A stretch of DNA of 64,000 nucleotides from Escherichia coli (GTDB lineage: Bacteria; Pseudomonadota; Gammaproteobacteria; Enterobacterales; Enterobacteriaceae): assembly GCF_045037415.1 (NCBI RefSeq), contig NZ_CP173440.1; one strand, 5' to 3'. Both the position numbers and the translations under genes were made by a program. The notes beneath the pieces were generated by a model, which had not been told where the DNA came from, searched no databases, and saw nothing but the letters and a program-made list of their open reading frames with translations. Position 1 is the first letter of the stretch, and the number at the start of each line of letters is the position of its first letter. Below are positions 15,789-32,381 of this stretch, in pieces.

Positions 15789-16811
15789 TCAATATTCCCG
15801 TTGATGTTGATTAAGCCACTGAGCTACCGAGCTGGCAAAGTAAGTCAATATGCCGTCTGCCCCGGCGCGTTTGAAGCATATAAGTGACTCAAGCACCGTT
15901 TGCTCTTCGTCGAGCCAGCCATGCCGGAACGCGGCCATATGCATCGCATACTCACCGGAAACCTGGTAGGCAAAAACGGGTACTGCAAAAGTTTTCCTAG
16001 CTTCCCTGATAATATCCAGATATGGCATGCCCGGCTTAACCATCACCATGTCTGCCCCCTCCTGCAAATCCTGGGCAATTTCATGCAACGCTTCCATCGC
16101 ATTTGCCGGGTCCATCTGATAGTTTTTTTTGTCCCGTTTGCCCAGCGCCATGGCAGATTGAGTGGCTTCGCGAAAAGGACCGTAATAGTTTGACGCGTAT
16201 TTCGCTGAATATGCCATGATCTGAATAGTCAGCAGGCCATTCGTTTCAAATGCCTGTCTGATATGTCCGATGCGGCCATCCATCATGTCGCTTGGCGCGA
16301 CAATATCTGCACCCGCTTCAGCGTGCGTAAGCGCCTGTCTGGTGAGAATTTCTTTTGTCGGCTCATTAAGCACATATCCATGTTCGTCAATGATGCCGTC
16401 CTGACCATGTGACGTATAGGCGTCAAGCGCAACGTCAGTTATCACCCCGAGTTCAGGAAAAGCCTTTTTCAGCGCCCTTACAGTTCGCGGTACTAAACCG
16501 GATGGATCCCACGAAGCGTCTGCCATCAGCGATTTAGCAGAACTTTCTATACACGGAAACAGTGCAATAGCAGGTATACCTGCCTGAACAAATTGCGCGG
16601 CATCATGAAGCAACATATCAACCGACAGGCGAAACACACCCGGCATCGACGGCACTTCCTGCCGCAGGTTTTGCCCCTCAATAATGAATACAGGTAAAAT
16701 CAGGTCGTTTACGGTCAGCTGATTTTCAGCGACCAGACGGCGACTGAAAGAATGGGTACGAGAGCGACGCAGTCGTCGCGCCGGGAAAGAACCAGGAATA
16801 ATAATACTCAC
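15789..16811 (-). CDS. hemB: porphobilinogen synthase paralog (HemB-like), Asp-rich metal site
   Basis: Strong ALAD-family similarity along its length. The metal-site region reads [15 protein letters not shown], i.e. the Cys-rich zinc motif of E. coli HemB replaced by Ala/Asp. Confidence 0.85.
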
Positions 16812-16874
16812 AAAATGTACCTTTTCTTCTGCGTTCTCAGGGAGAAGTTAAGCCTGAGCAAAATAAATACGTGG

Positions 16875-18221
16875 CTAGCGACAGAATTCCAGTGGCAGGC
16901 CGTACTTCTGCTGTATGGTGTGCCCATTCCAGATAACGTGGCCATTTACCAGCGTCATATCAACCGCACCGCCTGACAAAATCCGGCCTTCAAAGGGAGA
17001 CCATCCGCATTTGTATGCCACATCCTCCCGGATTATCTGTTGATGACTGAACGGATCGATAACCACCAGGTCCGCCCAATAGCCTTCCCTGATATAGCCG
17101 CGATCTTTGAGCTGGAAGCGCTCGGCTACAGCATGGCTGGTCTTTCTCACCACCATTTCCGGGGTAAAAATCCCCCTGCTGCACATATCCAGCAGTGCAG
17201 GAAGAGCATGCTGCACCAGCGGTAAGCCGGAAGGCGCAGCAAAATAGTCACTCTGCTTTTCCTCCAGTAAATGCGGCGCATGGTCAGTTGCGATAACGTC
17301 GATAATGCCTTCATTAACGCCTTTCCAGAGGGCTTCCTGATGAAACGAGGTTTTTACGGATGGGTTACATTTGAGCTTATGCCCCAGCGTTTCATAATCG
17401 TCATAATTAAAAAACAGGTGATGAACGCAGGCTTCAGCCGTGATGGTTTTCTGGCGCAGCGCCTCCAGCGTGGGGGCTGCATCAAAGAGAACAAGTTCGT
17501 CTGCGGTGGTAATGTGCAGAACATGTAATCGGGTACGATGTTTTTTCGCCAGAGAGACGGCCTGGCGGGAGGATGTCAGGCAGGCGTCCACAGAACGAAT
17601 AGCGGCATGCTCGCCAGGAGGAATAGCATCCCCAAAACGAGCCCGCCATATCGCCTCATTTTGCTTTATTGTCGGGGTATGCTCGCAATGTGTTGCCACA
17701 AGACAAGGGGCATTAGCGAAAATACTTTCCAGCACCTGTTCATCGTCCACCAGCATATTCCCGGTAGAAGCCCCCATAAAGACCTTCACCCCACAGGCTT
17801 GCGAAGCCGTAAGCGCTTTCAGTTCGTCAAGGTTATCGTTCGTCGCGCCGAAGTAAAAACTGTGGTTCGCCAGCGAAGAACGCGAGGCACGCTGAAATTT
17901 CTCACGCAGCGCCTGACGGGTTGTCGTGGGTGGCGTAACGTTCGGCATTTCCATAAAACTGGTAATGCCTCCCATTACTGCGGCAGCGGATTCAGTGGCA
18001 ATGGTTCCCTTATGCGTCAGACCGGGTTCGCGGAAATGAACCTGATCATCAATCATACCGGGGATCACCCATTTCCCTCGCACATCAATAACCAGCCATT
18101 CCGGTCGGGAGGGAATAAACGAGGCAATTTTCTGGATCCGTCCCTTATCAATGAGGATGTCGGCCTGATAGCGCATGTCCTCACTGATTATTAATGCATT
18201 GGTCAGTAATAAAGGCTTCAT
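16875..18221 (-). CDS. dihydroorotase/allantoinase-family cyclic amidohydrolase (PyrC2-like)
   Basis: 448 aa; DVIATDHAPH, GVKVFMGAST (carboxylated-Lys region). The N-terminal HxH metal motif reads DDQVHF. Confidence 0.7.
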   Translation of the reverse strand: MKPLLLTNALIISEDMRYQADILIDKGRIQKIASFIPSRPEWLVIDVRGKWVIPGMIDDQVHFREPGLTHKGTIATESAAAVMGGITSFMEMPNVTPPTTTRQALREKFQRASRSSLANHSFYFGATNDNLDELKALTASQACGVKVFMGASTGNMLVDDEQVLESIFANAPCLVATHCEHTPTIKQNEAIWRARFGDAIPPGEHAAIRSVDACLTSSRQAVSLAKKHRTRLHVLHITTADELVLFDAAPTLEALRQKTITAEACVHHLFFNYDDYETLGHKLKCNPSVKTSFHQEALWKGVNEGIIDVIATDHAPHLLEEKQSDYFAAPSGLPLVQHALPALLDMCSRGIFTPEMVVRKTSHAVAERFQLKDRGYIREGYWADLVVIDPFSHQQIIREDVAYKCGWSPFEGRILSGGAVDMTLVNGHVIWNGHTIQQKYGLPLEFCR

Positions 18222-30713: not shown

Positions 30714-31937
30714 TCATTCTTCGAACCAGGGCTCAACAGGATCGGAATAATGCCGCCACTTTTGAGGCCCTTCTGCCATTTCTGCATCCGTTAACAGGGC
30801 GGAATCCAGTCTGTTGCGCAGTTCTGATTCATTCATATCCATTCCAATAAAAACGAGTTCCTGACGGGCATCACCAATGCCATCTATCCAGTTAGACATG
30901 ATGAACTTCAGTGACTCAGCATCCTCTGGCCAACGTCCTTTCGGCACACTAGCCCACCACATGCCCCCCAGCCCCTGGCGCGCAATGCCACCTGCCTGCG
31001 ACCATGAACCTGCGAATTCCGGACGGCTGGCCAGCCAGAAGTAACCTTTTGATCTGACGACTCCATCCAGCTCATTTTCCATCACCTGCCAGAAACGGGT
31101 CGGATGAAAAGGCCGGCGGGCGCGAAAGACAAAGCTGGTGATCCCATATTCTTCTGTCTCCGGCGTATGTTCGCCCCGGAGTTCTTTAAGCCAGCCGGGT
31201 GCCTGAGCGGCCTGCTCGAAATCAAACAGCCCGGTATTAAGTATGTTGCCCAGCGGAACCTGTCCAAACTGTGAAACAACGATTCTGGCCCGTGGATTAA
31301 GCGAACGTAAAATCGCCATCAGTTTTTCTTTTTGCGCTTCACTGATAAGGTCAACTTTATTAAGGACCAGCACATCACAGAATTCAATCTGATCGATCAG
31401 CAAGTCAACAACGCTCCTTTCATCACCTTCACCTAACGATTCTCCGCGTGACTGAATGCTGTCTTCCGAACCGTAGTCTTTCAGAAAATTGTACGCATCC
31501 ACCACAGTGACCATGGTGTCAAGGCGGGCCACCGTCGAAAGGCTTTCACCGTCATCGCCCGCAAAGGTAAATGTTTCAGCAACAGGCAGAGGCTCAGATA
31601 TACCGGTGGACTCAATGACAAGCTGATCAAAACGCCCTTCTTTTGCCAGACGATTAACTTCGAGAAGAAGATCTTCGCGCAATGTGCAGCAAATGCAACC
31701 GTTGCTCATTTCTACCAGTTTTTCATCAGTCCGGGAGAGTTCTGCACCACCTTCCCTCACAAGGGCAGCATCAATATTCACCTCAGACATATCATTAACA
31801 ATGACAGCAACACGACGGCCTTCCCGGTTGTTCAGAATATGGTTAAGCAGTGTCGTTTTCCCTGCTCCCAAAAATCCCGAAAGTACGGTAACCGGCAGGC
31901 GTTTATCGCCATGAAAATTTGCACTGACTTCGGACAT
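30714..31937 (-). CDS. COG0523 GTPase with canonical CxCC motif
   Basis: P-loop [11 protein letters not shown] and GCICCTL metal motif, followed by a CobW_C-like C-terminal domain. Confidence 0.8.
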
Positions 31938-31973
31938 TACCTTACATCTCCTCAGATATTCGTTGTGTTCGGA

Positions 31974-32381
31974 TTAACCAGGATCGTTGAGCACGGTTAG
32001 CTCATCGCCTTTAATGGCGTTGTAAAAACAACTCCGCCGACCTGTGTGGCAGGCTCCACCTTTTTGATCCACTAGCAGTAGCACCGCATCTCCGTCACAA
32101 TCCAGACGGATATCATGTACTTGCTGAACGCAGCCGGAGGTCTCACCTTTTCGCCAAAGGCATGATCGGGATCGCGACCAGTAACAGGCTCTGCCAGTCA
32201 ATAAGGTTTCATCAAGAGCCTGTTGATTCATCCAGGCAAGCATCAACACCTCTCCAGTGTCATATTGCTGTGCAATCGCAGCGATCAAACCATGAGAATC
32301 CCAGGGTATTGACGGCAGGATATCCTCAAGCTGAAACACTGCTCCTGCATGGGCTTTTTCCAGTAACAGAAACATTGGCAC
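31974..32381 (-). CDS. hisI: phosphoribosyl-AMP cyclohydrolase paralog (HisI-like)
   Basis: 135 aa with HisI-like core (…WSRSRS…[28 protein letters not shown]); Cys/His ligand positions appear retained. Confidence 0.65.

Follow-up and report, generated by a model that had tools for sequence, protein, structure and literature searches.

Zinc-ligand patterns of the paralogs in the zinc-starvation island of a pLVPK-type plasmid

Why would an island that probably serves under zinc scarcity encode some paralogs of zinc proteins that have lost their metal ligands and others that have kept them? The question arises from a gene cluster in a 64,000-nucleotide stretch of Escherichia coli DNA (contig NZ_CP173440.1; hereafter, the window). 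The genes at positions 15,789–33,020 (Table 1) are those of the zinc-starvation backup-enzyme island that pLVPK-like virulence plasmids of Klebsiella pneumoniae carry. The island is 100% identical to K. pneumoniae plasmid DNA in 697 records, 660 of which are from Klebsiella; 33 further copies are chromosomal. It has the make-up of the clusters described by Haas et al. (2009): a gene for a subfamily-1 (YciC/ZigA-type) COG0523 GTPase lies inside it, and the zinc-protein paralogs HemB, PyrC, DksA, CysRS, HisI, Cam, FolE2, a QueD-like protein, and a ThrRS remnant are grouped with COG0523. HemB, dihydroorotase, FolE2, DksA, CysRS, HisI, and ZigA matched NCBIfam models above the curated cutoffs. A first-pass annotation had described the island as a mixture, in which some paralogs are zinc-independent substitutes and others keep their ligands and probably still bind metal. 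We took the ligand positions from solved close relatives, and this main statement holds; Haas et al. 2009 (BMC Genomics 10:470, PMC2770081) drew the same dichotomy of ligand-lost and ligand-kept paralogs for the pLVPK cluster.

Table 1. Genes and Zur-box-like sites of the island, with positions in the window
Feature	Position	Strand	Basis
HemB2, porphobilinogen synthase, Asp-rich (Mg-type) class	15789..16811	-	NCBIfam NF006762, 495 bits (cutoff 297)
PyrC2, class III-type dihydroorotase, Q60-V-H62	16875..18221	-	NF006688, 685 bits (cutoff 535); 2GWN, E 5e-126
M14 / AstE-AspA-like deacylase, HGEE motif	18218..19069	-	NF052223, E 4e-88, 295 bits (cutoff 400)
ThrRS2 remnant (thrS')	19062..20063	-	TGS domain fused in frame to ThrRS residues about 388-642
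DUF1460 protein, signal-peptide-like N-terminus	20493..21317	+	RefSeq annotation
Probable QueD2, two weak PTPS/T-fold halves	21334..22200	-	H...C-x4-HGH at residues 152-171
Gamma-class carbonic anhydrase (Cam), His motifs HSHSN and HRAIVHG kept	22330..22890	-	Annotation and motifs
FolE2 (GTP cyclohydrolase IB)	22880..23815	-	NF010200, 300 bits (cutoff 215)
DksA2, C-T-S-A instead of Cys4 zinc finger	23879..24301	-	TIGR02420, 127.5 bits (cutoff 115.5)
Zur-box-like palindrome GTTATAACATAAC	24333..24345	.	Directly upstream of dksA2
COG0523-like GTPase, DSISS instead of GCxCC	24372..25571	-	Walker A and RxKG intact
Fur-family regulator A, divergent, two CxxC pairs	25669..26121	+	Annotation and profile search
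CysRS2, intact, four zinc-site residues kept	26203..27585	+	Alignment with E. coli CysRS
Zur-box-like palindrome GTTATGTTATAAC	27623..27635	.	Upstream of oxidoreductase / FeoB-like pair
NAD(P)/FAD-dependent oxidoreductase, Cys-rich C-terminal tail CCADEDCAC	27656..28786	+	Annotation and motif
FeoB-like GTPase/permease, annotated nucleoside recognition domain protein	28816..30447	+	Annotation
ZigA-type COG0523 GTPase (proposed zinc metallochaperone), GCICC and RSKG	30714..31937	-	NF038288, 702 bits (cutoff 600)
HisI2, monofunctional phosphoribosyl-AMP cyclohydrolase, three zinc Cys kept	31974..32375	-	Alignment with 1ZPS
Zur-box-like palindrome TGATGTTACGTTATAACATATCA	32396..32413	.	Divergent hisI2 / Fur-B promoter region
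Fur-family regulator B, two CxxC pairs	32520..33020	+	Zur model, 85 bits (cutoff 167)

The zinc cysteines are lost in HemB2 and, except for one, in DksA2. In an alignment with E. coli K-12 HemB (44% overall identity), C120, C122, and C130 correspond to A128, D130, and D138 of HemB2, and the Ala/Asp reading of the first-pass annotation is confirmed. Residues 126–139 of HemB2 align with D118-TCFCEYTSHGHCG-131 of the E. coli enzyme. The Asp-rich motif DxALDxYxxxGxDG replaces the Cys-rich DxCxCxYxxxGxCG, which reads DTCFCEYTSHGHCG in E. coli. The best solved relative is the Asp-rich, Mg-dependent porphobilinogen synthase of Pseudomonas aeruginosa (1B4K; E 4e-136, 457 bits), which reads DVALDPFTTHGQDG and shares with HemB2 the active-site motif DVALD..T.HGQDG. 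We take the 1B4K-type enzyme to be the sole housekeeping HemB of that organism, whereas HemB2 is a second copy beside the Cys-rich zinc enzyme of the host.

The finger region of DksA2 reads FCRDTGEPIGLQRLLLRPTAELSIEAK when aligned with E. coli DksA. C114 is kept, and C117, C135, and C138 are replaced by Thr, Ser, and Ala, respectively, in agreement with the claim that one of the four zinc-finger cysteines remains. The protein thus has the DksA fold but not the full Cys4 motif, as is typical of the zinc-independent paralog DksA2, and one-Cys variants of DksA2 are mentioned in a 2024 Chem Rev review. The best solved match, P. aeruginosa DksA2 (4IJJ; E 2e-31), also lacks the Cys4 finger. However, 4IJJ keeps two redox-active, disulfide-forming cysteines, whereas the island protein has one. 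The redox-sensing pair (C114 and C135 in E. coli) is not retained in the island protein; its second position is Ser, and therefore a disulfide of the 4IJJ type is impossible.

The dihydroorotase-like protein had been reported to read QxH at the expected HxH position and had been placed among the zinc-independent proteins. The residue change is real (IDDQ60-V-H62-FREPG, compared with D-H-V-H-L/F-R in class I), but zinc independence is doubtful. PyrC2 keeps five of the six ligands of the binuclear site (H62, K146, H178, H236, and D313, aligned with 2GWN). Its pattern is that of class III: the first His of HxH is replaced by Gln, and the bridging Lys and the other His, His, and Asp are kept. The class III dihydroorotase of Porphyromonas gingivalis (2GWN) shares with PyrC2 the DDQVHFREPG motif and the positions of the Lys, His, His, and Asp ligands. 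This enzyme, which has the housekeeping role in P. gingivalis, is depicted with two zinc ions. The 2024 Chem Rev review notes the Gln both in Zur-regulated PyrC2 and in 2GWN, and its figure draws the latter with a binuclear zinc site. Because of the retained ligands and the Gln shared with zinc-bound 2GWN, PyrC2 is best read as having an altered metal site rather than as a metal-free enzyme.

CysRS2 and HisI2 keep their ligand positions, as had been stated. The equivalents of E. coli C28, C209, H234, and E238 are all present in the CysRS2 alignment. HisI2 has C93, C109, and C116, which align with the three Cys of 1ZPS, together with DxDxD. ThrRS2 is a remnant: a deletion of residues about 69–387 has removed its editing domain as well as the first half of its catalytic core. 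The zinc ligands C334 and H385 are gone, and the H511 position alone is left. The complete class II core with C334, H385, and H511 that is expected of a functional ThrRS is thus missing, and the score against TIGR00418 is 296 bits, below the cutoff of 384. The chromosomal islands of E. coli encode a full-length ThrRS2 of 652 residues.

The Zur-box-like palindromes suggest that the island is probably Zur-repressed. In the whole window, a Zur-like 17-mer gave eight matches with 0.15 expected, and its 13-mer core gave eight with 1.79 expected, a count that was reached in none of 100 shuffles. The sites at three promoters are preserved in the plasmid and chromosomal versions of the island. The site before the thrS'-M14-pyrC2-hemB2 operon is degenerate relative to its counterpart on the E. 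coli chromosome, and no Zur-like palindrome was found in the intergenic region between the COG0523-like and Fur-A genes (25,572–25,668). A further point against Zur repression is that the island has two Fur-family regulators of its own, both below the cutoff of the Zur model; Fur-B is the more Zur-like of the two.

The second COG0523-like GTPase has the G-domain and C-terminal features of its family (GFLGAGKTT and RSKG; the Pfam entries for its cluster are cobW and CobW_C). However, the CxCC metal-binding motif, which is called family-defining and invariant in the COG0523 literature, is replaced by DSISS at the aligned position. C.CC does not occur in the first 150 residues of any of its 120 best homologs. 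In Pectobacterium, the gene comes after a ZigA-like gene behind a Zur-like box, near znuA/zinT, and it stands alone in Vibrio and Celerinatantimonas; in view of these arrangements, we rejected the idea that it is an obligate neighbour of dksA2. Two copies of the DSISS protein are present here.

Among the remaining genes, folE2 encodes a protein whose role Haas et al. 2009 (PMC2770081) described as a non-homologous replacement for the zinc-dependent FolE. The M14 deacylase resembles the Shewanella-type N-acetylornithine deacetylase, with a score below the cutoff of that model. The DUF1460 protein, for which no NCBIfam match was found, may substitute for a cell-wall amidase. The assignment of QueD2 is a probable but weak one, because a PDB sequence search returned no match and Pfam gave just two marginal PTPS matches; it draws on these and the H...C...HGH motif.

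We consider it likely that the cluster is a horizontally acquired, probably Zur-repressed zinc-starvation island on a pLVPK-type virulence or hybrid plasmid, which provides backups for zinc-requiring housekeeping proteins. When zinc is scarce, the island would supply these backup copies, and the pattern of ligand changes would follow the chemistry open to each protein. Where zinc is merely structural, or where a metal-independent or other-metal class exists, the island carries that class, with the ligands gone. DksA is the structural case, and the Asp-rich Mg-type HemB and the non-homologous FolE2 are the alternative-class cases. PyrC2 is intermediate, with one His changed to Gln in an otherwise intact binuclear site, and it probably has a changed affinity or preference for metals. 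The ligands are kept in CysRS, ThrRS, and HisI, which have no known alternative class and in which zinc is involved in recognizing the substrate or in catalysis. An extra copy of this kind would help only through gene dosage, a higher zinc affinity, or metal delivery by the co-encoded ZigA GTPase. The ligand changes are not island-specific adaptations: HemB2 is of the Pseudomonas-type Mg class and PyrC2 is of class III, and both are alternative enzyme classes that were acquired, not mutated host copies.

All of the enzyme paralogs, the ligand-keepers included, might instead use metals other than zinc; kept ligands would then be no guide to zinc dependence, and the two-group split would be merely apparent. 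According to the 2024 Chem Rev review, QueD2 is metal-promiscuous despite its retained ligands, QueD and QueD2 being comparably active with Mn, Fe, and Zn, and a relaxed metal preference has been proposed for PyrC2. An Fe-dependent gamma carbonic anhydrase was raised by Haas et al. 2009 (PMC2770081). CysRS2 makes this explanation unlikely: it is close to the E. coli enzyme (617 bits), has an identical first shell, and bears no sequence sign of another metal. E. coli CysRS discriminates between amino acids by the zinc-thiolate bond that it forms with the substrate cysteine, which also counts against a general use of other metals. Another explanation is that the ZigA GTPase has the ligand-retaining copies as its dedicated clients and that the island is a self-contained zinc-allocation module, not a collection of separate backups. 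COG0523 proteins have been proposed to be zinc metallochaperones (Haas et al. 2009, PMC2770081, and other literature), and hisI2, which a Zur-like box precedes, is the gene directly upstream of zigA and lies on the same strand. However, zigA is split by an IS66 element in E. coli XJW9B277, yet cysS2 and thrS2 are still intact in that strain; a strict client relation is improbable.

The island may also be mostly passenger DNA, its ligand patterns inherited from donor lineages with no present adaptive role in Klebsiella. IS fragments flank it, an in-frame deletion has left a mere remnant of thrS2, and it lacks the sit-like ABC operon that the E. coli chromosomal island carries. cysS2 is a pseudogene in pLVPK and pKp2449-vir, and an internal stop interrupts hisI2 in the E. 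coli chromosomal copies. The decay of thrS in the window and of cysS in pLVPK argues against a need for every island gene. However, many plasmids carry the other genes intact and in identical form, the Zur-box-like sites have been kept as described above, and dN/dS is low wherever divergence permits the test. Between the window and the diverged E. coli chromosomal copy, values of 0.04–0.15 were obtained for HemB2 (0.08), PyrC2 (0.15), M14, QueD2, and Cam, indicating purifying selection on these diverged genes. DksA2, CysRS2, and the DSISS GTPase fall outside this comparison because the two copies hardly differ, if at all, in the middle block of the island, and the misaligned Fur-B comparison (dS 1.8) was disregarded. 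We therefore find it quite unlikely that the island is mainly a passenger. The ligand changes are family-level features of intact genes. HemB2, DksA2, FolE2, and PyrC2 are intact in all four island versions examined, and each of the housekeeping-like, ligand-retaining copies has been inactivated in one lineage or more: the Klebsiella plasmids for ThrRS2, the pLVPK-type plasmids for CysRS2, and the E. coli chromosomal islands for HisI2. We treat a preferential decay of ligand-retaining paralogs as anecdotal, since the events number three or four, spread over three lineages, and the gene set was defined post hoc. It is conceivable, though rather doubtful, that two things hold jointly: that only the zinc-sparing substitutes pay their way, the paralog classes having different fates, and that the DSISS GTPase, a conserved protein without a metal site, acts as a partner of ZigA or regulates it and is not a metallochaperone.

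The zinc-starvation island, read as a set of backup proteins, is carried by the plasmid by which hypervirulent K. pneumoniae is defined. Because the host withholds zinc as part of its innate immunity, a plasmid-borne zinc-starvation kit could add to fitness in the host. Our literature search found no experimental studies of the island on Klebsiella plasmids, and its genes go unmentioned in a 2024 paper on zinc acquisition by K. pneumoniae. The ligand pattern described in the first-pass annotation is not new; it had been reported for the same island in 2009. Haas et al. (PMC2770081) named the COG0523/zinc-paralog cluster of pLVPK and described it as Zur-regulated, and the 2024 Chem Rev metallostasis review formally defined category 1 and category 2 paralogs. 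Nothing is added here to the pattern beyond these two sources.

Compared with pLVPK (127228-144454), the island of the window has the same gene order, and eight genes have identical protein accessions (HemB2, PyrC2, M14, DUF1460, QueD2-like, Cam, HisI2, and Fur-B). However, the copy in the window is a mosaic: from folE2 to the feoB-like gene it shows no difference from the allele on the E. coli chromosome. This block contains an intact cysS2, whereas the cysS2 of pLVPK has a frameshift and a stop codon. The Zur locus of P. aeruginosa (PA5532-PA5541) contains dksA2, two COG0523 genes, folE2, pyrC2, amiA, and cam, all behind Zur boxes. COG0523 GTPases, DksA2, FolE2, PyrC2 with the His-to-Gln change, and a gamma carbonic anhydrase are common to this locus and the island, and DUF1460 takes the place of AmiA. 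Unlike the Pseudomonas locus, the island is plasmid-borne, and it additionally encodes HemB2, CysRS2, HisI2, the ThrRS2 remnant, the QueD2-like protein, the M14 deacylase, the FeoB-like transporter, and two Fur-family regulators.

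Each residue-level observation of the first-pass annotation on the zinc ligands of the island paralogs (suffix 2) was fully confirmed. In HemB2, Ala and Asp stand in place of the zinc cysteines: in the MAFFT alignment with E. coli K-12 HemB, which reads SDTCFCEYTSHGHCG, C120, C122, and C130 correspond to A128, D130, and D138. The closest solved relative of HemB2 is the P. aeruginosa enzyme (1B4K, E 4e-136), and the Asp-rich motif is common to both. DksA2 keeps one of the four finger cysteines, with C, T, S, and A aligned to the cysteines of E. coli DksA (1TJL), whereas these positions are occupied by C, T, C, and A in P. 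aeruginosa DksA2 (4IJJ). The dihydroorotase PyrC2 has QxH at the HxH position (DDQ60-V-H62-FREPG), while the class I enzymes that this search also found show D-H-V-H. CysRS2 can be aligned over the full length with E. coli CysRS (617 bits), and its ligands C28, C209, H234, and E238 all match; in HisI2, the three cysteines of 1ZPS are kept, as is its Asp triad.

The proposal that the island mixes zinc-independent substitutes with metal-binding paralogs was largely right, but PyrC2 had been placed among the former and five of its six ligands are retained. Besides H62, it keeps K146, H178, H236, and D313, which align with the ligands of 2GWN, the class III dihydroorotase of P. gingivalis. That enzyme shares the DDQVHFREPG motif (E 5e-126), and a review figure legend shows it with a binuclear site occupied by zinc ions (PMC11672702). 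According to the review, Zur-regulated PyrC2 has a conserved Gln instead of the first His, 2GWN has this Gln too, and its authors suggest an altered metal preference or affinity of PyrC2 rather than metal independence (PMC11672702). Judged by its retained residues, PyrC2 would fall into the group that still binds metal, or into an intermediate position. Neither HemB2 nor PyrC2 is a mutated host copy; both belong to alternative enzyme classes with a housekeeping role elsewhere, and the differences from paralog to paralog therefore mirror which alternative classes exist.

The short ThrRS gene of the plasmid (thrS') carries an in-frame internal deletion, which fuses the TGS domain to residues ~388–642 and removes the editing domain, motifs 1 and 2, and the ligands C334 and H385. 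Full-length ThrRS2 occurs in E. coli chromosomal islands (7271–9229 in L004, one such copy), where the catalytic zinc ligands C334, H385, and H511 are kept and all four editing-site residues (H73, H77, C182, and H186) are gone. A sit-like metal ABC operon comes after this full-length gene and is missing from the plasmid.

The island is a compact block according to the ORF listing and family searches of the window. It begins with HemB, dihydroorotase, an M14/AstE-like deacylase, the short ThrRS, and a DUF1460 protein, and continues with a QueD-like protein, gamma carbonic anhydrase (Cam), FolE2, DksA, a COG0523-like GTPase, and a Fur-family regulator (Fur-A). CysRS, a flavin oxidoreductase, an FeoB-like protein, ZigA, HisI, and a second Fur-family regulator (Fur-B) complete it. 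The RefSeq annotation of a plasmid identical to the window agrees with this gene list, and eight island genes share protein accessions between that plasmid and pLVPK (NC_005249.1; island at 127228–144454). Many K. pneumoniae plasmids carry DNA 100% identical to the island; 660 of the 697 matching plasmid records are from Klebsiella. Island DNA was also found in 55 E. coli genomes, where some occurrences are conjugation-derived plasmids and ~33 placements are chromosomal.

Features of the island and its right-hand surroundings in the window
Feature	Position	Strand	Remark
Compact gene block	15789–33020		
M14/AstE-AspA-like protein	18218–19069	minus	
Short ThrRS ORF	19062–20063	minus	
QueD2-like gene	21334–22200	minus	13741–14607 in L004
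Zur-like site	24333		upstream of dksA2
DSISS GTPase	24372–25571	minus	
Zur-like site	27623		upstream of oxidoreductase/FeoB-like pair
Flavin oxidoreductase	27656–28786	plus	upstream of FeoB-like gene
Zur-like site	32396		between hisI2-zigA and Fur-B
Nik/Opp/Cnt-type ABC importer and MFS transporter	36512–42819	plus	directly right of island
Zur-box-like sequence	36539–36556		start of importer region
Zur-core palindrome	57546–57558		~450 bp upstream of FecCDE/Btu-type transporter
FecCDE/Btu-type ABC transporter	58000–60809	plus	ATPase, binding protein, permease
ZigA C-terminal fragment	61130–61552		window right end
Second DSISS GTPase	62666–63904	minus	window right end

The M14/AstE-AspA-like protein matches a Shewanella-type N-acetylornithine deacetylase model (E 4e-88) below the model cutoff. 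It might stand in for zinc-dependent ArgE as an analogue, and this replacement is absent from the list of Haas et al. 2009 (PMC2770081). For the QueD2-like gene, the plasmid annotation gives "hypothetical protein", and E. coli RefSeq records give "isocitrate dehydrogenase", apparently in error. The flavin oxidoreductase has a Cys-rich C-terminal tail (CCADEDCAC) that may bind metal.

The COG0523-like GTPase has an intact Walker A motif and RxKG, with DSISS where ZigA has GCICC. The CxCC motif, termed family-defining and invariant for COG0523 in the literature, was found in none of its best 120 homologs (down to 53% identity), a set that spans Enterobacterales, Vibrio, Shewanella, and other groups. 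The second copy of this GTPase is 98% identical to the first. The FecCDE/Btu-type transporter genes, preceded by the perfect palindrome GTTATGTTATAAC, adjoin the ZigA fragment and this second copy, and together these elements resemble part of another zinc cluster. The Nik/Opp/Cnt-type importer region may serve to take up metals or metallophores.

Matches to the Zur-type 17-mer numbered eight in the window against 0.15 expected, and those to the 13-mer core GTTATNNNATAAC eight against 1.79, a count reached in none of 100 shuffles. Three of the sites, at 24333, 27623, and 32396, fall within promoter regions of the island, and the E. coli chromosomal island preserves them. Ahead of the thrS'-pyrC2-hemB2 operon, the plasmid has a degenerate form of the chromosomal site, and a search before Fur-A found no Zur-like site. 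Fur-A and Fur-B, each with two CxxC pairs retained, fall short of the cutoff of the Zur model. Zur control of the island is likely.

When positions 15789–32381 are compared with the chromosomal island L004, the left block (hemB2 to cam) shows dS of 0.1–0.5 and dN/dS of 0.04–0.15, while the middle block, which runs from folE2 to the FeoB-like gene, shows virtually no difference. Therefore, the window's island is a mosaic, in which the middle block matches the E. coli chromosomal allele and the flanks are pLVPK-type. The dS contrast suggests that recombination recently replaced the middle block.

Gene decay differs among copies. cysS2 is a pseudogene with a frameshift and a stop in pLVPK and another classical virulence plasmid (L011 32560–34130; L012 10912–12293), an internal stop interrupts hisI2 in E. 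coli chromosomal copies (L004 26844–27263; L013 21881–22282), thrS2 is truncated in all Klebsiella copies examined, and in one E. coli strain an IS66 element splits zigA. All inactivations seen in natural copies affect ligand-retaining paralogs that resemble housekeeping proteins; the one exception is a frameshift of hemB in the assembly of a laboratory transconjugant, and the HemB protein of pLVPK is intact. A preferential loss of ligand-retaining paralogs, different ones in different copies, is suggestive but anecdotal.

Haas et al. 2009 analysed Zur-regulated COG0523 clusters, explicitly including that of pLVPK, and reported that conserved zinc-binding residues are missing from the PyrC, HemB, and DksA paralogs (PMC2770081). 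The first-pass annotation thus rediscovered a published result on the same island, and the ligand pattern is already known and of little interest as a discovery. A 2024 Chem Rev review formally separates category 1 paralogs, with ligands lost, from metal-promiscuous category 2 paralogs (PMC11672702). To this knowledge, the present analysis makes small additions: the reclassification of PyrC2, the deletion within ThrRS, the clade of GTPases without CxCC, and the decay of CysRS2, HisI2, and ThrRS2, each in particular lineages.
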